A stretch of DNA of 59,935 nt from Chiloscyllium plagiosum. Taxonomy: Eukaryota. The notes beneath the pieces are model-generated. The model saw only the letters and a list, made by a program, of their open reading frames with translations. It made no database searches and was not told the origin of the DNA. Location: positions 6,574,702 to 6,634,636 of the forward strand of contig NC_057749.1 in NCBI RefSeq assembly GCF_004010195.1, read 5' to 3'. The translations under genes were made by a program, and so were the position numbers. This document shows, piece by piece, positions 37,001 through 55,000 of the stretch (positions are counted from its first letter, which is position 1; every line of letters begins with the position of its first letter).

Positions 37001-40000
37001 ATGGATATGGGTCAAATGCAAGTAAGTGGAACAACTTTAGTTTGGGAAACTTGGTCGGTATGGATGAGTTGGACCAAAGGGTCTGTTTCTATGTTGTATG
37101 ACTCTGTGACTCTGTAAGTGACCATCACTGAAATATATTAATTGTGACAGACAGTTCCTAGGGGAAAAAAAACAATTGGAGTGAATATAGTTAGTTAGGA
37201 AAGGAACTATAAATAACATACTGTCAATGAAAGAAACAATTTCGATTCCACGCAATCAGCAGCTTGCTTGGGAAGAGGATGATATTTTATTTTGTCCCTG
37301 TTCATTGCAAGACTTCACCGTGAATGGTTAGTTTGCTTTGCATTGAATGATGCATCAGTCCTAAGGTACAGGCTTTGTGTCGATTATAGTCATTCAAGTA
37401 GAAATTAGCACTCTGTGGCCGTTTATTCACGAGTGGATAGCTCACTCGATCTGGTGGATTAATGGAGGGAGGAACAGAGAGGATGGAATGTGAATGGGAA
37501 CTGAAGCATGCATTGTGCCATATGTTGTATTAGTTTAAGCTGCTGCAGGTCTGACAACAGATGCTATATCTCCAACCAGGTCATACACACAAACCAGGGT
37601 GAACCAGCTCCAGCCGAGAGGAAGGAGAAGCATTTTTCTGCAAAAATAAAACACAGAAATCCATTTCTCAATGAAACTCAAAGGCAGATCCCAAGGGTTA
37701 TATTTTCATGTCTAATAATTGCATGGTCTCACTTAGCTAGTGTCTTACTGGTTGGGGACTCACTGTATATATCTTCATTTCAGAAGATTACTATTGTTTG
37801 CTTATTTCAGTGAAGCTAACTCTGCCTCGGGGCTTTTTCTTTTGGCTCATCTTGAATTTACTGTGGTCCTGTGCTGACTTGTTGATTCAAGAACTACTCA
37901 GCCTCTGCCCAGCCACTGGTTGGAATTCGTGGAGTTTAATTTAATTTGTGCGCTAACCAACAGAAAAAGACATTAAAGTTGTTGCTGGTGTTAGAGGATT
38001 TGAGCGAAAGGGAGAGGCTGAATAGACTGGGGCTGTCTCACTGGAGAGTCGGAGGCTGAGAGATGACCTAACAAGGCTTATAAAGTCATGAGGGGCATGG
38101 TTAGGGTGAATAGCCAAGGTCTTTTCCCCAGGGGAGGGCATAGGTTTAGGGTGAGAGGGATACAATTTAAAAGGGACCTAAGGGGCAACTTTTTCACAAA
38201 GAGGGTGGTACATGTATGGAATGACCTGCAGAGGAAGTGGTGGAGGCTGGTACAATGACAGCATTTAAAAGGGCACCTGGGTGGGTATACGAATAGGAAA
38301 GAGTTTAGAGCGTTATGGGTTAAATGTTGGCAAATGGGACTAGATAAATATAGGATATCTGGTTGGCATGGGCGAGTTGGACCAAAGCTTCTTGTTCTGT
38401 GCTGTACATCTCTATGGTTCCAAGTTAAGAAAGGATGGTACAATTTCAGGTAGTACATGAACCACTATTGTCAGTCACCTGTTGTCCATCCATGTTGCAG
38501 GTAGAAATCAGCAGAAATTCATGCTTCTTAAGCCATTGTAACATTTTTCTTTACTCATTCATGGGATGTGGTCATTTCTTGCACATCCCTAATTGCACAG
38601 AGGACAAGTAAGAGTCAACACATTGTAGGTCTGGAGCGACATGTTGGCCAGACCAGGTAGGGATGACAGATTTCCTTCCCTAAAGGGTATTAGTGAACCA
38701 GATGGATTTTCCCCAACAATCATCAACGAATTCATGGTCATCATTTGACTCCAAATTCTAGATTTTTATTGAATTCAAATTCCGCCATCTGCCATGGCAG
38801 GATTTGAACCTGGGTCTTCAGATTATTCCCAGGGTCTCTAGATTAACAGCTGGAAATGTGTTGCTGGAAAAGCGTAGCAGGTCAGGCAGCATCCAGGGAA
38901 CAGGAGAATCGATGTTTCGGGCATAAGCCCTTCTTCAGGACTGCGCTTTTCCAGCAACACATTTCCAGCTCTGATCTCCAGCATCTGCAGACCTCACTTT
39001 CTCCTTCTCTAGATTAACAATCTACCAACAATACTGCTAGGCTGTCACCTCCCCATCTACTGTAATCATGTCTGCTGCACGTGGAAAGAAGCTATGGGGG
39101 ACACTGGGAATGATGCCAAAGGAAAGTTCTCTTTCTAGCATTATTCATGTTCTAACTTCCAAACAGCAAACCAAAAAACCCTCACCTGCAACAGATTAAA
39201 CATCCATTAACCCCAGCAAAGATTTTATGTGGCTGACAAAAAAGATGCAATTTATTTCTAATTTGTTCTTGGGTTGATAACAGCAACTCTGAATGTGCAT
39301 CAATTGCCCTTGGTGCTGTCTATTTAGTGTTAGTGTCAGTGCTTTTCTCTGTCGGGGGTTGATGTAACTGAATGGATTGCTGGTGAGGTTAAGAGTCATG
39401 ATTTGGAAGAGCCAGTGTTGGACTGGAGTGTACAAAGTTAAAAATCACACAACACCAGGTTATAGTCCACCAGGTTATAATTGGAAGCACTAGCTTTCGG
39501 AGCGCTGCTCCTTCATCAGGTGGTTGTGGCTAAGGTTAAGAATGACATTATATTTATGGGCAGCATGGTTAGCACTACTGCCTCAGGGCACGAGGGACCT
39601 GGGTTTGATTCCAGCCTTGGGTGGTTGTCTGTATGGGTTTCCGCCGGGTTCTCTGGTTTCCTCTCACATTCCAAAGATGTGCATCGGAACTTGGTGCTCT
39701 CAGTCATCTCCTCCTCAGCGCCACTGATGCAGACAGGGGTTTGTCCTCCACTCTGCTTCCTGAAATCACTTTGCTGATGTTGATGGAGGGCTTGTTATCT
39801 TTTCACCATGCCGTTAAGCATTCTATCTCCTTCCAGTACTCCATCTCATTATTGTTTGAGATCCAATCTATAATAGATTATATTGAATAAGACACGAGAG
39901 AAAATTTCAAGTACTCAAGCCAAGGTTCATTATAATTCTATCAAAGCCCCATGCTAATAAAACAGAAAAGGAAATGCACATTAAGAAATGCAGTGGAAAA

Positions 40001-43000
40001 GAAGTCAAAAGTAAAGGCAGTCCTGATGTGAACTTAATAATGGTCTTCACTTCAGTAGGTCTCAGGCAGTGCAAGTTGTATATTCAGTAGTCAGTTTTAA
40101 CATAATCTTGATCTCCAGGTTCAAAGGAACTTTGAACAGAAGCTGTAGAACCAAAAATAACCATTGCCACACAGACCCACCAGGGTTTCCCTTCTTACCT
40201 AATCCCAAACAGCAAAACCTCAACTTCTCTGCATTTATCAAACAATACAGGAGTAGCTTCCAAGGGACAGAGAAGAAAAACCAAACAGCTTGATATTCTT
40301 CGATCAACAAAATTCGGCAGCAGTGAGATTTTCTTCCAACTGCTTCAGCCACTTATAGATTAAATACATGAGCAGAGCCTGTGATGCGATACCCTTTTCT
40401 ATGTCCCAGTGGATGGAGCTGGTGTCTTGGGTCTAATGATCTTTATGTGGTATGTACTTTATGTTTTTAGGTTGCTAAGCAACAATGTCCATTAAAGGCC
40501 TGTCTAAGTGCAGGCATTTTGCTTGAATTCCACAGTAATAAAATAGCCCACTATAGTTCATGGTGGTTTCAGGATCAGATATTAAGTGAGAACTAATTGA
40601 ACAATGTTTTGCTGTGTGTAACCAATTGTAATTTGATAACAGGAGGAGATAGCAACAGCCTGGAAGGTGGCAAGGATTGAGCCAATGGTACTCAGGCTGA
40701 GATTTTCTCTGTCTCAGTACCTGGATGGACCTGGTAAGTAACGAGTGTGAATTTTGCTAAACATTTTTCCTTGAAATTTTCTCGACTGAATTCTATAGTT
40801 GACTCACTGACTTTTTGTTATTTGCTTATGGGTTGTGGGCTTTTTTGGCTAGGCCAGCATTTATCACCCATCCCTAATTGCCCAGAGGAGTCACACAAAT
40901 TGCTGTGCGTCAGGAGTCACATGTAGGCCAGATCCAGTAAGGATGGCAGTTTCCTTCCGAGAGGGCATCAGTGAACCAGATGGATTTTTCTGACAATCAA
41001 TTCATGGTCACCATTAGACCCTTAGTTCCGGATTATTTATTGAATTCAGATTCGACCATGGTGGGATTCGAACCCAGGTCTCCAGAGCATTAGCTGAGTT
41101 TCTGGATTAATATTCTTGTAATAAAATCACTAGACCATTGCATTGTAGGCAAATCACAGGCCCTAATAACACACATAGGCCCTAATAACACACTCTGTGG
41201 GGAGATGGTGATGTAGTGGTAATACGAGTGCCCTTAATATCACCAAAGGCTCAGTCTAATGGACATGAGCTCAAATTGCATTACAGTAGCTGGTAGCATT
41301 TCAATTCGGATTAACAAATCTGGAATATGAAAGCAGTCTCTGTAATGGTAATCATGGCATCCATCATTTTGTTTTTTATTTAAAAAATGTACTTTATTCA
41401 TAAAAAAATTCATTATATATATATACAAAGTCACAAATGCAGTTCGGTTCCGTACAGTAGCATATCAAGGAAACAATCAAACATTGGAATTTGATTCTAC
41501 CCAAACAAATTAAAGGTGTCTCTTACTTGAACCAGACTATATTTACATGCATTTGATGCATGAGATGGGTCTGATAACTGAACGGACCCCAATTTACCTT
41601 TGGCAGAAAGACCTCAGACAGTGGGCTTTCCCCATTGCGCCTTGGCAGCAGCTTCCCAACGCTTTAGTGCATCCCTCAGCACGTGGTCCTAGCTATCATT
41701 TAATTTTCTTTAAAGTTTCAAACATATACTTTATTCATAAAAAATATCTTTGTATATATACATAGTCGCAAACATAGTTCGGCTTTGTACCATTGCATAT
41801 CATTGGAACAACGCAAACATTGGAGTTTGACTCTATCCAAATAGACCACAAACCTCTCTTACACATACAATACTATATTTACATACATTTATTGTTGTAA
41901 AACACACCTATTCACTAATGCTTTGGAAAGGAAAGGTCCCAAAATAAATTGGTCTGATTCACATGTGTCTCCTGGTCAATGTTACTTTTGAACTCATTGT
42001 TGCCTTCTGTAATGGATGTGTTCAAGGGCAATTGGAGATGCTGACCTTGTTAACAACCCCCACATAACTTGATAACACGTAAATACTGCAAATCAGCAGC
42101 AATTAGTTTCTCTCTGTCTCCATCCTTTGCAGATGATAATACGACATTGAGTAAATTATATGTTGCTAATTATAAAATCTGTTTTATGCTTTATCTGTTG
42201 AGCTATTAAGGGCTGATTCATTTCTTGGGTAAAATACCTTTTCTTATAGGTGCATAAATACATTCTAATAATTTACTTTAATGCAATTTATTTTCCATGC
42301 AAAATGATCGCAAGTTGTTTCACAGATGTGTCATTCACTGTGGAATTATTCACCACTTTAACATATCTCAGGTTTATGCCCATTGCTCCATATCCCCAAT
42401 ACCTGTCAGGTGAGTGGAACCAAACATTGCCCATGTAGTTGAAACTTTGCTGAGATTGGCTTCCAACCAGCATGGACTTGATGGGCCAAAGGGTCTTCAT
42501 CTGTGCTGTAGATCAGTGATTGATTGATTTATTGTCAAGTGTGCTGGAGTACAGTGCAAAGCTTTGTTTATGAACAGTACAGGCAGATCATAGCAAGCAA
42601 GCATGTAAAGATCAAAAACACTTAGGTAGAAGCATACAGATTACATGCACAGGACATGCCCAAGGCGACATCAGTGTTAGCAAGATCAGTTTTACTTGTG
42701 GCTGATAATGGCTGTATGCCTCTATGACTGTAAAAAAATGCAGCTTCCTTTACTGCTATTTGCACTAAGACACATTGTGAGATTTTCTGAGCAAGATAAT
42801 ACTGCAATCTTTAACTTCTATTTATATTATCTGATTTACAAGACCAAGTTGTTATGGTTCTGTTCGCCGAGCTGGAAGTTTTTGTTGCAAACGTTTCGTC
42901 CCCTGGCTAGGCGACATCATCAGTGAATGGGAGCCTCCTGCGAAGCGCTTCTTTGATGTTTCCTCCGGTGTTTATAGTGGTCTGTCCCTGCCGCTTCCGG

Positions 43001-46000
43001 TTGTCAGTTTCAGCTGTCCGCTGTAGTGGTTGGAATATTGGGTCCAGGTCAATGTGTTTGTTGATGGAGTTTGTGGATGAATGCCATGCCTCTAGGAATT
43101 CCCTGGCTGTTCTCTGTCTGGCTTGCCCTATGATAGTAGTGTTGTCCCAGTCAAATTCATGTTGCTTGTTGTCTGCGTGTGTGGCTACTAAGGATAGCTG
43201 GTCGTGTCGTTTCGTGGCTAGTTGATGTTCATGTATGCGGATTGTTAGCTGTCTTCCTGTTTGTCCTATATAGTGTTTAGTGCAGTCCTTGCATGGTATT
43301 TTGTACACTACATACGTGGAGCACCAATAATGTTTTTGTGGTGTTAACTGAAGGAGAGGGGTGGGGGACCAATCTTTCCTCCTCATTAAAAAAAAGAGTA
43401 GCCACTCATAATTAGTTGTGAGATTTTGCTGTGCACAAAATGGCTGCCACATTCCCCATATTTTTGAATGAGTTCACTTCTATGAGGTTCTTTGAAGAGC
43501 GTTGCAGCAAAAATGTTTCTTGGAGTAGCAAGCCTTGCTTCTTCCCACCTCTCAGTTGTTCAATGGTAAATTCTGGTGAATTTAAAGAGTGTTCAAAGTT
43601 AAAAATCACACAACACCAGGTTATAGTCCAACAGGTTTAATTGGAAGCACGAGCTTTTGGAGCACCACTCCTTCATCAGGTGGTTGTGGAGGATACAATT
43701 GTAAGGCACAGAATTTATAGCAAAAATTGACAGTGTGATGTAACTGAAATTATACATTAACAATAATTTGATTGTCTGTTGAGTCTTTCATCTGTTCAAA
43801 TACCATGATAGTTTCACTACTTTCATGTGTAAATCACAAAACCTTTTTTTAAAAGTTGCATTCTCGATTAGCTGTAACAATTGGTGTTAGCTCGACAATA
43901 TGTTGAAGGTGTTGGCCCCCTGTGTTCTCTGTCTATGCCATGATGTTTTGATTGATTCTAATCTAAAAAGTGAGATAACAGAGTTTTATATGAATTCATG
44001 CAGTACAATGTAACCCTGCAAGTACAAATTCACCCCACAAAGTATATGTGCGCATGTGGGTCTTTGTGTCTGTCTCTGTGTGTGTCTGTCTGGGTTGGGG
44101 ATTGTGAGTGTGAGAATGTGTATGCGTGTGTGTAGTGAGTGCAGAGTGTCTTAAGTCTGTGAGGGGGTGCATGTGTGAGTGTGGGTTTGAACAAGACCAA
44201 GTCTTTAAAGACGACTGACATTTTCTTTCGAAAAGGTTATTCTTTCATGGGATGTGGGTGTTGCTGGCAAGGCCAACATTAGTTCCTCCATCCCTAATTG
44301 CCCTATGACCTGGATGGCTCGCTCAGTGATTCTAAGAGGGTGGTTCAGAGCTAACTACTTTGCAGTGGCCCTGGAGTCACGGGTAGGTCAGACTGGGTAA
44401 GGTTGGCAGACTTCCTTTCCTGATGGGGAACAGATGAAAGTTTCATGGTCACCATTGCAGAAATTAGCTTTCAATTCCAGTTTGATCAATTCATTATATT
44501 TACATTCCCCCATAATGGACTTTGAACCTGTAATCTAGGCCTCTGCATTACTCTCTGTGAGTCAGCATTTATTGCCTCAAGGCTAATCCTGTTTCTTCCC
44601 CTCAGATGATCTGTAAAATATTTTCCAGCATTTTCTGCTGTCATTTCAGAACTCTACTTTTTTCGATTCAAACCAAAATTGTGTGGATTCAAGTTCCCAG
44701 TGAGGACTAAATCCTGTCATCCATGTTGATACTCCAGTGCAGAAGATGGAAGATCTGTCTCTTGGATAAGATATTCATTTGAGAGTTTCTTTCCAATCTA
44801 ATAATATGGAGCACCAATAATGTTTTTGTGGTGTTAACTGAAGGAGAGGGGTGGGGGGTCTCCTCATGTTTTGGCCAATCTTTCCTCCTCATTTAAAAAA
44901 AAGAGTAGCCACTCATAATTAGTTGTAAGATTTTGCTGTGCACAAAATGGCTGCCATATTCCCCATATTTTTGAATTAGTTCACTTCTATGAGTTCTTTG
45001 AAGAGCGTTGCAGCAAAAATGTTTCTTGGAGTAGCAAGCCTTGCTTCTTCCCACATCTCAGTTGTTCAATGGTAAATTCTGGTGAATTTAAAGGTGTTTA
45101 AAGTTAAAAATCACACAACACCAGGTTATAGTCCAACAGGTTTTAATTGGAAGCACTAGCTTTTGGAGCACCGCTCCTTCATCAGGTGGTTGTGGAGGAT
45201 ACAATTGTAAGGCACAGAATTTATAGCAAACATTGACAGTGTGATGTAACTGAAATTATACATTAAAAATACTTTGAATGTCTGTTGAGTCTTTCATCTG
45301 TTCGAATAACATGATAGTTTCACTTCTTTCATGTGTAAATCACAAAACCTTTTTTTAAAAGTCGCATTCTCAGATTAGCTGTAACAATTGGTGTTAGCTC
45401 GACAATATGTTGAAGGTGTTGGCCCCCTGTGTTCTCTGTCTATGCCATGATGTTTTGATTGATTCTAATCTAAAAAGTGAGATAACGGAGTTTTATATGA
45501 ATTCATGCAGTACAATGTAACCCTGCAAGTACAAATTCACCCCACAAAGTATATGTGCGCATGTGGGTCTTTGTGTCTGTCTCTGTGTGTGTCTGTCTGG
45601 GTTGAGGGTTGTGAGTGTGAGAGACAGTGTATATGTGTAGTGAGTGTAGAGTGTCTGTGTGCATGTGCGTGTATAGGAGTGCCTCTGTGCGTGTGTGTAG
45701 GAGTGTCTGTGTGTGTCTATAGTGCAATGGTGGTCACCTGTAGAGTGTTGATTGTAACCCTTTGACCTAGTAGCCATTGTAATGAGACCCTCACAGTGAC
45801 CCTATTTTAATTTCCCGACAGAACCATCGGTAGATGTTTTCCAGCCATCCAATAAAGAAGGGTTTGGCCTTGGACTTCAACTGAAGAAGTGAGTACACGG
45901 GTCCAAAATAATTTCACAAAAATCGGTGATCATCACTTCATGGGATCTTGCTGAGTCCAATAGCTTTTGCACTGTCTTATTTTCAACCGTGACAACACTT

Positions 46001-49000
46001 CATTGCCTGTAAAGTGCTTTGTGATATCCTGAGGCTGTGAAAAGCATTATCTCAATGTAAAAAATTCTCTTTATATCAGAATGTTATCTTTTAAAATCAT
46101 GATTACAAGTAATTGCACAGGGATTATATGTGTAACTATATCTCTCAAAAGACAATCAAAGTCTTGCAAATGATTTGCATTTTCTGTAGGTGTCAAACTG
46201 ATCTGTAAAAACATTCCCATCACATTGTCATTAATTCCAACCCTCTATTTATAAAACTGCGTAACTTGAATCTCATCAAGCACGACCATGAGAGATCTGG
46301 CAGGGCATGTAAAACATGTGCATAATACAAAGTGAGGTCAATTTTATGGTTACCAAACATCTGATTTGAACAGGAGGGGCCATGTAAACGAAAGTGATTG
46401 GCAGCCCATTGTCTTCCTGTCACACCCCTCATGCTGCCCCCGACATAATAAAGAGAAGACCTATTAGCACGGAGATAAGGAGAAACTTCTTCAGCCAGAG
46501 AGTGGTGAATCTGTGGAATTCATTGTCTCAGAAGGCTTTGGAGGCCAGGTCATTGAGTATATTTGAAACAGAGAGAGAGAAATGCTTGATTGCCAAGGGG
46601 ATCAAAGGTTATGGGCAGAAAATGGGAAAATGGGATTGGAAAACTTATCAGCCATGATTGAATAGGGGAGCATACTTGATGGTCCGAATGGCGTAATTAC
46701 TGATGCTATGCTGTATGGTCTTATAGCAAAGGATAGCCAATGCCTTAGTAACAGCCAGCACTCCCTTAAGCCTATTGAAGTCCTTGAATGGAAATGAACT
46801 GCCACATAAGGGCCTCCTTCTATGCCGCAATTTTCCTGTCTGTGAGGGAAGACGAGAACAAGGTGAGGGCAGTATGGTAGCTCGCCATTATTACGATCCC
46901 AGCTGATATTAGATTAGATTAGATTAGATTAGATTTTTAGATTAGATTAGATTACAGTGTGGAAACAGGCCCTTCGGCCCAACAAGTCCACACCGACCCG
47001 CCGAAGCGAAACCCACCCATACCCCTACATTTACCCAGAGTGAAATCTGACTTGTTAGATCTTAAATTTGTATTGTTTATATCAACCCAGCTCCCAAAAC
47101 TAAGATAAGCAAGTAAGACTTTTTTGGACCAAAGGAGAAAGTGAGGATTGGAAATGCTGGAGATCAGAGTCAAAACATGTGGTGCTGGAGAAGCACAGTT
47201 GGTCAGGCAGCATCCGGGAACAGGAGAGGTGACATTTTGAGCATAAACTCCTTCCTGATGAAGAACTTATGCTTGAAATGTCGACTCTCCTGCTCCTTGG
47301 ATGCTGCCTGACTGGCTGTGCTTTTCCAGCACCACATTTTTTGACTCGATATTTGGGACAAAAGTCCAGGTACGACTTTTACATGAGATGGACAATTACT
47401 TGTACAGGTCCTGACCAAAGGATGCAGGTGATGGAGTAGGCGCAGCTCCCGAGAAAAGTCTTAACCATTTGTTGGGAATGGAGATGACCGTGAGATGTTT
47501 GTGTGAAGACGGTCAGTGTCCTTTGTTGGTCCTTTTTGCAGAATCCTAGGAATGTTCACATCTCAACAGTGGAAGCACCTAAGCAACGATTTCCTGAAGC
47601 GCCAACAAGAGAAGAGGCAGAGCTGGTTCAAGTCGAGCAGTCGAGTGAAGAAATTCCGATCTGGGCTCAGCATCTTCTCGTCAATCCCAAAGTAAGGGGA
47701 ATCGTGGGCTAGGTGCAAAAATGATAGTGTTAAGGGCAGCATCGTGTGATTCTCGATAGAGAAAAGTCACCAACCATAAATGCTTCGAAGTGTCAGCACT
47801 TGGCTGCCTAGCCACTGAGATATCTTACCTTTTTCCCAATCTCTAAATGTATTTAGGACTAACGTAGGAAAGTGTTTGAAGAAAATGGACATTAAAAAAA
47901 AACAAATTAAGTGTTGATTTCTCTTCTTGCAACAGCTTCTAGGGCCCTAATCTTTAATCCTGGGAGGTTCCAGGAAAATCTCCGAAGGGTGGCTACCTGC
48001 AATCGGGTATTTTAAAATATACGATTCCATTAATTAACATAGGTAAGTGTTGCCAATAAATGCTGACCCAGCCAGAGATGCTGACATCCCATAAGAGAAT
48101 AGAAAAGTAGGAAGAGTTCCGTTGGCTTCTTGGGTAGAATCCTTCCTTCTGAACCAGTGGCCTGCGGTTCGAGACTCAATCTAGGATTTGACGGAGGAGA
48201 GAGGTGCATTCATGACATATCCCAATCATTAATGTGCAAGTCCTGCCAACGTATTAGTGGTAGGGCTGGGAATGTCTTTTAGTCAGCTATACTCAGTCTG
48301 GTGTGGCACCTTTCCCGCGATGGCCTCTAATGGTAGCTGACGGCCTGGTCTAGGTAAAATGAGTGTCAGAAACAACCATTGCTGCCTCTGTCCCATGCAA
48401 TTCTAGATATGGGAAGAGACTCAAAAAGAATTGATAGAGTCTTTTCCATACTAAGAAACAATTTAGTGAAAATCCTACTAACACTGAACTGATGACTTCC
48501 TTCTGTAGGAGCACTAAAATATTGCCATTGCTGATAGGGTCATTGATGAGTGGTTAACGCCATTGACAATTGTGAAGTAGCTGTCCATGAAAAGCGAAAT
48601 GTAGATCTTACCCTCTGATGACAAAATGACGCAGAAGAAGGCCATTCAGGCCATTGTGCCTGTACCGGCAGCTCAATGTTTGTATCATCCTGCCAACTGA
48701 TAAAACAATCTCTCCACCTCTTGTTCCAGATCTCCAAGTTTCCCCCTCATTCAGGACTCCATGCTGAAGAGCAAACTCGGGGTGCCAGATCTCCGAGTCA
48801 ATCGCATCATTAATCGTTCCATCTCTTGCACCATGAAATCGCCCAAAGTGGAACTCCTTGGAATCCCCTCAGCTAATCAGGCAAGTTCCCCCCCACACCC
48901 CACCCTCCCTCACCACCTCTGTAATGTAAAGTCAAAATGAAGTTACCACAGCTCAAGAGGAGTATAGGGGTGCCGTCTCATTAGAGAGTGTTATGGATCA

Positions 49001-52000: not shown

Positions 52001-55000
52001 ATCAAAATTACAGCAAAGTCTTCCGATTAGGGGCAGCACAGTGACTCAGTAGTTAGCACTGCTGCCACACAGCGTCAGGGACCCAGGTTCAATTCCCACC
52101 TCGGGTGCCTGAATGTGTGGAGTTTGCACGTTGTCCCCATATCTGTGTGGGTTTCCTCCGGGTGCTCCGGTTTCCTCCCACAATCCAAAGATGTGCAGGT
52201 CAGGTGAATTGGCCATGCTAAATTGCCCATAGCGTTAGGTGCATAAGTCAGGGGTAAATATAAGGTAGTGGAATGTGTGTGGGTGGGTAACTCTTTGGAG
52301 AGTCGGTGTGGACTTGTTGGACTGTAGGGAATTTAATCTAATCTAATTAAAAAAGGAAAAAGTTGCAGAAAGTGGGAGGACAATTACCTAATCCACAATT
52401 ATGTACAGGTGTCCCCCTCTATCTGAAAGTAGAATGTTTGTAAGCCGAAATGATGTAAAGCGAAAAAACAATTACCATTAGTTTATATTGCAAAAATCTT
52501 TCCGTGTTCCCAGACCCAAAAAAGACCTATCAAATCATACCAAATAACACATAAAACCTAAAATAACATGAATATATAGTAAAGGGCATTGGAGGTTGGG
52601 GTAGTGGAAGGTACAGGATACCTTAGGACACATCTTGCCAACAGAGGTTCAAAATAAATGGAGATAAGGCACAAATGCTCACAGGCACAGGTCAAAGCTG
52701 TGGTGGATTGATGCTGAGTGTAGTTTCCGGGGAAGGCACTTGGTGACGCCATTCTCACTGAGCACGCTTTTTTGTAAAAGCGAAGATCCTCTTCCGGTTA
52801 GTGAAAATAGGGTTGAAAGTAAGTCTTTTCTAAAAGTGACTTGGTGTAAAGCGAACTTTTAAAAAGTGGGGAATACCTCTATTTCAAATAAATCCCAGTT
52901 CATAAGGATCGAGGAGCAGAGGTGGGCCTTTTAACCCATCAAGTCTTCTCTGTCTTTCAATAAGGTCATGGCTGATTTGATAATTCTCAACAATCCATTG
53001 TCAATTGTCAGGAAAAACCATTCTGGCTCACTAAGTCCATTAGCAAAGGAAACTGCCATCCTTACCTGATCTGGCCTACATGTGACTTCAGACCCACAGC
53101 AATGTGGCTGACTCTTAACTGCCCTCTGGGCAATTAGGGATGGGCAATAAATGCTGACTTAGCCAGTAATGCGCTCATCCCATGAATGAATACTCCACTC
53201 TCCTGTCTTTTCTGTTTAACACTTAATTCCCTTATTGATTCCCTGATTAAAGATCTGTCTATCTCAGCCTTGAATTTAGTTAATGGCTCAGCTTCAAGAG
53301 TCCACTATGGTAAAGAGTTGCACAGATTCAAAAAAATTCTCCACATCTCTGTCTTAAATATATGACCCCTTATTCGGACTTTATGCCTTCTTCACCTAGA
53401 TTGTCCGACAAGGGGAAACAAACTTTCCGCATCTACCCTGTCAGGTCCCCTCAGAATTTTGGATGTTTCAATAAGGCCACCTCGAATTCTTCTAATTTCC
53501 AATAAGTATCAGCTCAAACTACTCAACCTCGCCTCATAGGACAGTCCCTCCATACTTGATAACAGACTGGTGAACATTCTCTGGATTCCCACCAATGCCA
53601 GGATATTTTTCCTTAGATAAAGGACCTAAAACTGTCCACTGTATCCAGCTGTGGTTTGACTAGTGTCTTGTATAGTTTTAACAAAGCCTCCCTAATTCTA
53701 TAGAGGGTAGTGTGGTGCTAGAAAAACACAGCTGGTCAGGCAGCATCCAAAGAGCTGGGAATTGACTGTCATCCATAATCTCTTCATAGACTTTCTCCCT
53801 ATTTCTATACTCCATCCCCTTTGAAATAAAGGCCAACATCCCATTTGCACTCCCTATTACCCAATGAAGTTGAATAGGGACTGCTAAATCCCTCTGTTTA
53901 GTCATGGTGTAGAGATGCCAGTGTTGGACAGGGGTGGACAAAGTCAGAAGTCACATGACATCAGGTTATTGTCCAACAAGTTTATTTGAAATCACAAGTT
54001 TTCTGAGTGCTGCTCCTTTGTCACGGAGGGGCAGTGCTCTGAAAGTTCATGATCTCAAATAAACCTGTTGGACCATTACCTGGTGTCCTGTGACTTCTGA
54101 CTTTGTCCCTCTGATTAGAACAGTCCTTTATAATAATATGGTCTTTAGGCATGACTGCTGGAGAAATTACCCAACCGTCTCCATTCTAGTCTGACTTTGT
54201 GAAATATCCTAGTCAAGATGACTGTTCTTTGGGCATCTTGTGAGGAAGCTGTGTCCGCGTTTTGAGACTGTTATGAGGAAAGGAAGGACTCTTGGCCACA
54301 AAAAACAATTCAAAAATCAAAGTAGTAAAATCCTCAAGAATACAGTGAGTTTGTTGTGGGTAGATCAGCACAAATTAAATTTAATTCAGCTACATATTAA
54401 GAAATCTCACAGACAATCAAATATTGAAGCAATAGTTTAATTTTTATTGCATGTAGCTACCTAAATAAGACCCCCTCAAGTAAGCAAGTTAAGTTTCACT
54501 ACCCAACTTGGCTATTTCTCAATTAATGATGAAATCTGGCCAAGACTTTACAAGCAGTGTCTGTCTCTGGAAGCGTCTTTATGCAGTGTTCTTCGAAGTT
54601 CTGCTATTGACTAGTTTTGGTGTTGGATTCTTGTGCAATTTTCATTTTTTCAAGTTTGTGGTGTGACATTATTGATAATTCAATGGCTTCTTTCATTTCC
54701 AATATTTATTATTTTCCTGAGGACCTCACATCTGTAGCTTACCTTCTTATCAGAAGCAGCTCCTCTGTTCCTTTTACACTTGGAGTTAGCTGTCTGTTTA
54801 AAACACAGTCTTCCCTGCAATTAACTCTTTAAATTCTTCTGCAGGGCAATCCTTGTCCTTTGTGGTAATACCACATCCAGTTTATTAAGCAATTTTATTT
54901 CTGTAAACATGCCAAGACATGGCTCATTGCTTTCAGTCTCAGTGTTAAACCTTGTCTTTGATCTTTTCCTCTCAAGAAACCGCTTACTCCAGACAGAGAT

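Follow-up and report, generated by a model that had tools for sequence, protein, structure and literature searches.

The PARP6 intron studied here carries an insert in which the 3′ end of a Penelope-like element (family A) is joined to a copy of intron DNA from a short distance downstream, and on balance we lean towards a single integration event during which a broken end copied nearby chromosomal DNA. The insert lies within 59,935 nucleotides of Chiloscyllium plagiosum, the whole stretch that was analysed and that we call the window, in the intron between the PARP6 exons at 40643-40732 and 45822-45888. PARP6 is read from the plus strand and the two Penelope pieces from the minus strand, antisense to the gene, while the copy is direct. 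With this window we compared four sequencing runs, which cover organisms B and C and the same species, the latter through one run, X15, from another study. Being a lone intronic case, the insert has no evident function and is most likely inert intronic DNA.

Structure of the insert

A 12-bp direct repeat that occurs exactly twice in the whole window, at 42838 and 44191, brackets 1341 bp; among 1500 random position pairs a repeat of at least 12 bases at paired boundaries occurred once. The left repeat copy (42838..42849, plus strand) is followed by the family A piece (42850..43313, minus strand), a 3′ end of 464 bp with an open frame which is 5′-truncated inside the GIY-YIG domain. Three extra bases (43314..43316) then lead into a copy of 869 bp (43317-44185), which at the right joint is separated by 5 extra bases (44186..44190) from the right repeat copy (44191..44202, plus strand). 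The copy itself consists of host intron flank (43317..43585, plus strand, carrying a 16-bp deletion; source 44807-45091), of the 8-bp left target duplication of an older family B element (43586..43593, plus strand) and of the 3′ part of this element (43594..44185, minus strand) with a hammerhead-like core at 43655-43679. An unduplicated spacer of 604 bp (44203..44806), to which like the extra bases no strand is assigned, separates the target site from the source block (44807..45656, plus strand). This block reaches into the older family B insertion (45099..45741, minus strand), a stub of 643 bp with a hammerhead-like core at 45161-45185, and ends 165 bases before the downstream exon (plus strand).

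The preliminary description of this DNA had reported the perfect repeat with the length of the insert, the truncated GIY-YIG fragment joined to a local copy, a source about 600 bp from the target site and a source end less than 200 bp from a PARP6 exon. All of this was reproduced, the joint being refined to 43313 plus 3 extra bases. The copied block had been described as a family B 3′ end plus about 280 bp of flank; the composition is right, and the flank measures 269 bp plus the 8-bp duplication.

At the left joint the run-on of family A past 43313, as read from loose contig ends, differs from the window in all four runs. At the right joint family B has other letters than the window after 44185, hence 44186-44190 are counted as extra bases. 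The TGG after the 3-base filler is also the next three bases of family A, interrupted here by 3 bases, and clean microhomology was found at neither joint. Local sequence offered the two fillers no template beyond matches of 6 to 8 bases, and these we judged to be chance matches in AT-rich DNA. Two other stubs within the window have duplications of 8-9 bp and one of them a 3-base filler. No other near-identical local duplication was found in the window, and one of the nine listed low-copy pairs within 6 kb exceeds 82%.

The minus-strand frame of the family A piece (42910-43314) is open and 65-92% identical to its eight best shark protein matches, five of which contain reverse transcriptase or related Pfam domains. 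The piece matches the C-terminus of reverse transcriptase-bearing shark proteins with 87% identity over 99% of the query, and it carries the C-terminal GIY-YIG domain of endonuclease-bearing Penelope-like elements. Because the piece is truncated, the Pfam domain PF01541 alone scores weakly (E 0.015, below the cut-off). The reverse transcriptase (PF00078) lies outside the piece in the window, yet upstream in the same frame of the closest relative P0001. The element has a short target duplication without a poly(A) tail, no A or T tract being present at 42850. A pattern search gave a minimal hammerhead-like core at 42894-42923, and an Rfam search with E up to 1 gave two matches far below the cut-offs and no hammerhead. 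Energy folding of four hammerhead-like segments produced only partial stems and was not counted as evidence.

The older family B element is bounded by an 8-bp target duplication at 45092-45098, where one base has been lost, and at 45742-45749; its left part is mutated in the source and intact in the copy. In each of the four runs loose contig ends accumulate at 43589-43598, the 3′ end of family B, and continue into a shared extension. Family B copies share this 3′ end, an optional tail of about 30-40 bases, the hammerhead core and a short target duplication; the window copy at 39395-39529 carries the tail extension. The hammerhead core of copy and source shows the same change relative to a paralogue in the window. 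No coding frame was recognised in the 643-bp stub. One frame of the copy, used as a protein query, gave four candidates, none of them significant, and metagenome contigs scanned twice by pattern for copies of family B gave 0 loci.

The empty site and the age of the copy

In organism B a contig of run X9 (record 24, 449 letters) joins 42610-42837 directly to 44191-44412 (228 and 221 letters) and thereby bridges an empty site with a single 12-mer. Record 1 of X11 ends at 42837 with 76 letters left over, as expected for an empty site. The bridged site is seen in a single contig of a single run, and for organism C the contigs listed do not include the second side. Organisms A, B and C all have the left junction of the source block (records 17, 25, 11 and 3), and contigs of the relatives extend 23-25 bases into the older family B insertion. 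The family A piece and the genomic duplicate thus lie inside one target-site duplication and are absent together at the empty site; a duplicate without the Penelope piece, which the preliminary description had named as an observation against its reading, was seen in neither B nor C. These data support its view that the 12-mer is a target-site duplication and that the insert is newer than the source, and they support a lineage-specific insert.

It is extremely unlikely, in our opinion, that the structure is an artefact of assembly or of joined haplotypes. One could suspect this from X15, an independent run of the same species, which shows only the source letter at 43470 (1 contig), an unbroken contig across 44806/44807 (record 17) and no copy-specific junction among its listed contigs, the cover being patchy. 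Its depth is zero at several places in 42305-42740, which we did not take as evidence of absence, and contig assembly from short reads can lose thinly covered links to repeats of very high copy number. A false haplotype join, however, would repeat the 604-bp spacer too and would not yield a Penelope piece inside a 12-bp duplication. In addition the copy keeps ancestral sequence absent from the source, namely the intact 8-bp duplication and 34 family B bases, and holds derived changes of its own.

Aligned with gaps, 43317-44151 and 44807-45656 are 94.2% identical; apart from 21 substitutions they differ by a 16-bp gap and several small ones. The copy runs on in family B sequence to 44185, 34 bases beyond the match with the present source; this stretch (44152-44185) follows family B and is missing from the present-day source. 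Copy and source share four derived letters, one with respect to both relatives (43355) and three with respect to the family (43694, 43893 and 43949), and we therefore conclude that the template was the source locus after the split from B and C. The shared letters together with the sequence later lost by the source indicate a copy of the source locus and no plain haplotype duplicate. The row at 43867, beside an indel and with a share varying from 17% to 98% between runs, was left out of this count, and 15 of the 21 substitutions are unpolarised. The divergence between copy and source (19/799) equals that of the flank to organism B (30/1260).

The preliminary description had also proposed to compare the divergence of the two parts. 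At least 4 private changes fall into the 464 bases of the family A piece and at least 5 into the 869 bases of the copy, similar rates (Fisher p 0.51); the counts are lower bounds, and the comparison has little power. A dispersed composite element was ruled out, as in all four runs the copied flank has the depth of single-copy sequence (4-8, read at 43355 and 43470).

Possible routes to the insert

That both parts stem from one event is supported by inference, because the Penelope end abuts the duplicated 12-mer and both parts carry similar numbers of private changes. The endonuclease of family A would have cut the two strands 12 bases apart, and the left end would have primed reverse transcription of family A RNA, stopping after 464 bases. 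Before closure a free 3′ end, either of the cDNA or of the opposite chromosomal end, may have copied about 870-885 intron bases, starting 604 bases away on the chromosomal template as in synthesis-dependent strand annealing. The ends would then have been joined with the 3 and 5 extra bases, and filling in the stagger would have given the 12-bp duplication. Later drift would have set the copies about 2.4% apart, the source losing the stretch kept by the copy.

The single target-primed event with a template switch put forward earlier is in this way retained in part, as one event by inference, with local DNA as the most economical template. Neither an exon, an exon junction, a splice site nor an acceptor was found in the copied block, and because the block has no exon junction a DNA and an unspliced RNA template are inseparable from the sequence.

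An RNA template would be used in twin priming, with the left end extended on family A RNA, the right end extended on nascent unspliced PARP6 RNA from near 45690 back to 44807, and the two cDNAs joined. The orientation fits (gene plus, element minus, copy direct), nascent RNA accounts for the proximity, and a Penelope protein of a lizard can cut both strands and extend them in vitro (PMC11167929); L1 insertions from two opposite-sense RNAs are described in PMC11702581 and PMC13174262. The target end is, however, not complementary to the priming point and is followed by 5 extra bases instead, the supposed RNA origin bears no exon-junction mark, and any part of the gene could have served as donor, yet the donor lies only 604 bp from the cut. 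We thus regard twin priming as unlikely. Priming on PARP6 pre-mRNA from the other broken end was absent from the options listed in the preliminary description.

The alternative RNA, an antisense read-through transcript of element B extending about 270 bases into the flank and reached by a jump of the family A reverse transcriptase, is very unlikely to us and the weakest of the template options, because the joint has no poly(A) tract and none of ten poly(A) signal hexamers occurs in 44807-44920 (114 bases). Extra bases at a joint are typical of reverse transcriptase jumps, and they are present here. The block also resembles a 3′ transduction unit, elements A and B have the same orientation as in template-switch chimeras (PMC13174262), and with its changed hammerhead core, judged from the sequence, the B RNA might not have cut itself. 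But element B is a 643-bp stub in which no coding frame was seen, the nearness of the donor, at 604 bp, would be left unexplained by a released RNA, and the flank is single-copy in depth with no other transductions seen. Unlike in a 3′ transduction the flank is internal, at the truncation point of A, and has neither a poly(A) tract nor a listed signal.

Two separate steps would lead to the identical final sequence and are compatible with an empty site in the relatives. Here a 1.5-kb tandem duplication from 44191 to about 45690 would come first and element A would later enter its first unit, 12 bases in, with removal of 604 bp, or a repair duplication would receive an A insertion exactly at its edge, and the 12-mer would be a leftover and no Penelope target duplication. 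Repair duplications that bring filler and a target duplication of their own are known, a target-site duplication being listed for 6 of 39 proximal cases (Table 1 of PMC2671141). The Penelope 3′ end would, however, have to hit a 1.5-kb unit within about one target-site duplication length of a breakpoint to which it is unrelated, which we estimate by simple proportion at roughly 1 in 100. The A insertion would also have to delete 604 bp or to leave no duplication of its own, an intermediate allele was seen in none of the four runs, and both parts look similar in age. We hold a two-step origin to be quite unlikely.

Returning to local copying during integration, the claim that Penelope elements offer a route for duplicating host intronic DNA is overstated in its extent, only about 270 bp being host sequence and the rest an older Penelope-type stub. 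It is conceivable, if doubtful, that in these sharks integration regularly leaves two ends that can be extended, and that the second of them, or a stalled cDNA, takes up several hundred bases from nearby DNA or from nascent host transcript. Given the abundance of these elements, local duplications, possibly of exons, would then arise systematically and would give a genomic read-out of an undescribed second-end step in Penelope integration.

Relation to known systems

Genomic templates at L1 integration sites have been described in PMC11702581 and in bioRxiv 2024.08.27.596794, the latter giving 22 cases of templated insertions, typically <250 bp with the template within 15 bp. Compared with these cases, the present insertion is old and germline, involves a Penelope-like element that has a GIY-YIG endonuclease and lacks a poly(A) tail, and has a template of about 870 bp at a distance of 604 bp.

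The repair duplications of Pace et al. (2009, PMC2671141) have proximal donors within 5 kb, filler and microhomology. Our case resembles them in its donor within 5 kb, its filler bases, the missing poly(A) and the empty site in relatives, and has a donor that is more than 50 bp away and found at one other place, uniqueness being taken from the single-copy flank depth. Chimeric acceptors are known among these duplications and L1-made breaks have been suggested as their source. In contrast, the longest of these proximal duplications measures 619 bp, less than our copy, and the probable break-making retroelement sits inside the insert; their pipeline removed transposon insertions, and cartilaginous fish were not among the genomes. 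The present insertion is longer than the templated insertions reported for break repair and than the L1 cases cited.

Penelope captures in the rotifer Adineta vaga (PMC3846280) likewise involve host sequence, a target duplication and an empty-site check. In the rotifer the cargo is enclosed by terminal repeats and is carried to other loci; the extra DNA of our insert stems from the same intron and adjoins the 5′ truncation point. LINE-1 chimeras made by template switching, ligation or twin priming (PMC13174262) likewise gain foreign sequence in one event where a truncated element has its 5′ end. They join small RNAs, Alu or spliced mRNA of other origin, whereas ours joins unspliced intron of the same locus, in which nothing marks an RNA origin.

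While both L1 integration and break repair are known to yield templated insertions, we found no description of one for a Penelope element; completion of Penelope insertion after first-strand synthesis is stated to be unvalidated (PMC11167929). With its empty site, readable joints and datable donor, the present case suggests that a Penelope intermediate can copy local sequence as L1 intermediates do, and its value would be that of a template for a genome-wide count able to tell DNA from RNA templates.

The composite insertion and its empty site

The preliminary description had reported a perfect 12-bp direct repeat at 42838-42849 and 44191-44202, and a search of the window indeed found it at these two places and nowhere else. 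Among 1500 random pairs of positions with the same spacing only one had a repeat of at least 12 bases lying no more than 15 bases from both boundaries. The repeat encloses a 5'-truncated Penelope GIY-YIG end of family A on the minus strand (42850-43313) and a local duplicate, the copy (43317-44185). Aligned with its source (44807-45656), which lies 604 bp from the target site and comprises intron flank and part of an older family B element, the copy (43317-44151) is 94.2% identical with gaps, differing by 21 substitutions, a 16-bp gap on the copy side and small gaps. No second near-identical local duplication was found within the window, leaving copy and source as the sole case. The composite insertion is genuine and well resolved. 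It sits within the PARP6 intron between 40732 and 45822 (nine exons were mapped on the plus strand), and the copy ends before the splice acceptor and the PARP6 exon, which are outside it. The insertion bears no sign of function.

We compared the region 42000-44806 with four of 24 runs, namely X15 from a separate study of the same species (organism A), X9 from the related organism B, and X13 and X11 from one sample of the related organism C. Record 24 of X9 (449 letters) consists of 44191-44412 and 42610-42837 with no sequence between, demonstrating the proposed empty site with a single uninterrupted 12-mer in organism B. In organism C, record 1 of X11 ends at 42837 with 76 letters over and fits an empty site, the other side not being among the contigs listed; X13 has no contig at 42837 among those listed. 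The source junction is spanned by record 11 of X13 and record 17 of X15 and implied by record 25 of X9 and record 3 of X11, and the records of B and C extend 23-25 bases into the family B element. Family B and its flank are therefore older than the split, with the composite younger; family B preceded family A. Among the filtered records of X15 no copy-specific contig was listed, only the source letter was seen at 43470, and record 17 passes through the source start without break, all of which counts against the insertion; the depth of X15 is zero at seven of the places listed (42315-42736). That the composite is an artefact we consider highly improbable.

Origin and age of the copied block

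The copy originates from the source in the window. Both have a letter at 43355 which is absent from both relatives, and at 43694, 43893 and 43949 they agree and differ from most of family B. In the copy, five substitutions (43470, 43651, 43667, 43798 and 43819) are derived; the 16-bp gap is probably derived too, given the 10-15 gaps at this place in the records of the relatives. The source has at least three derived changes: the loss of a duplication base, a change at 45099 and the loss of at least 34 bases. Comparing the copy–source divergence (19/799 in the region up to 44115) with that of the flanks (30/1260 to B, 46/1255 to C) gives the event roughly the age of the split from organism B. 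A comparison of the two parts of the insert yielded similar rates of private changes, at least 4/464 in the family A piece and at least 5/869 in the copy (p 0.51), both counts being lower bounds. An origin in two steps would have given an identical final sequence but requires a close coincidence, and we regard it as improbable.

The family A and family B elements

The minus-strand frame 42910-43314 of family A is open and matches C-terminal ends of proteins of Chiloscyllium punctatum and Hemiscyllium ocellatum with 82-92% identity; 153 candidates gave 15 hits in all, and the best match has an RT domain upstream. The Pfam GIY-YIG match is weak, and a hammerhead-like core at 42894-42923 was found by pattern match, Rfam giving no detection. 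Beyond 43313 the family A copies of all four runs depart from the window sequence, reading TGG and then different letters, so that the joint consists of family A, three extra bases and the copied block. The copied block likewise starts with TGG, which may reflect interrupted microhomology or chance. At 43066 and 43071 the window letters are the majority in family A contigs of A and C (other letter 2-5%) and rare in those of B (other letter 94-99%), these shares being summed contig depth, which is not copy number; in contrast, the unique flanks place B (2.4%) nearer to the window than C (3.7%). Uneven amplification or transfer could account for a family A subfamily that A and C have in common and that is scarce in B.

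An 8-bp duplication brackets the family B element (45099-45741, minus strand): its right-hand unit (45742-45749) is intact, as is the unit carried in the copy (43586-43593), but one base is missing in the source. Family B contigs track the copy up to 44185 and diverge beyond, with loose ends in X13 and X11; the copy thus retains 34 bases gone from the source, and 44186-44190 is filler. Family B is a putative Penelope family, judged by a shared 3' end whose tail is optional, by the hammerhead core and by the duplication; a protein search with one frame of the copy found no coding link. Compared with a family B stub at 39386-39541, copy (43658) and source (45164) carry one and the same change in the GAAA portion of the hammerhead core; the ribozyme was therefore probably altered before copying. 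This stub (135 bp, 39395-39529, with tail and intact hammerhead-like core) is set in a target duplication of 9 bp, with a filler of 3 bases at the 5' joint. A diverged fold-back (palindromic) stub at 53900-54110 is about 76-79% identical to the family B end.

Other repeats were also noted. The copied flank part 43410-43503 has slightly raised depth, and a similar-looking worn repeat follows the exon at 45940-46060; this suggests putative old SINE remnants. A direct repeat of roughly 195 bp (41363-41554 and 41695-41890; 74% identity, 140 bp between), also older and with no further match in the window, represents either the end of a repeat family or an old duplication made locally. At 47134-47347 there is a head-to-head pair of another short repeat family bearing a hammerhead, with more copies at 93, 7392, 9078, 25326, 36706 and 38850-38940.

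Possible mechanism and related systems

A staggered cut of 12 bases at the target would have allowed the left end to prime family A cDNA, the nearby block would then have been copied into the break, and the ends would have been joined with fillers. Of the two templates put forward in the preliminary description, we lean slightly towards chromosomal DNA, and antisense read-through RNA of the family B element appears decidedly doubtful. Nascent PARP6 pre-mRNA, with the right end as primer, is a further, unlikely template. Given the 3-base filler of the plain family B stub at 39395-39529, such short fillers are nothing unusual in these elements and favour no template.

Of 1136 human duplicons, 824 had a donor no further than 5 kb away; the duplicons measured at most 619 bp and showed filler and microhomology (PMC2671141). 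Three L1-mediated insertions contain sequence templated from DNA near the site and nine were built from two RNAs (PMC11702581), and L1 chimeras obey orientation rules (PMC13174262). In a set of 22 templated insertions at L1 integration sites, lengths are typically below 250 bp and distances no more than 15 bp (bioRxiv 2024.08.27.596794). Penelope terminal repeats can enclose captured host DNA (PMC3846280), and a Penelope protein from a lizard cuts both strands and extends them, priming without homology, the later steps of integration being described there as unvalidated (PMC11167929). Our search of the mostly open-access literature revealed no description of a Penelope element capturing local sequence by templating. 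The process itself is known; here it involves a different class of retroelement and a larger size.
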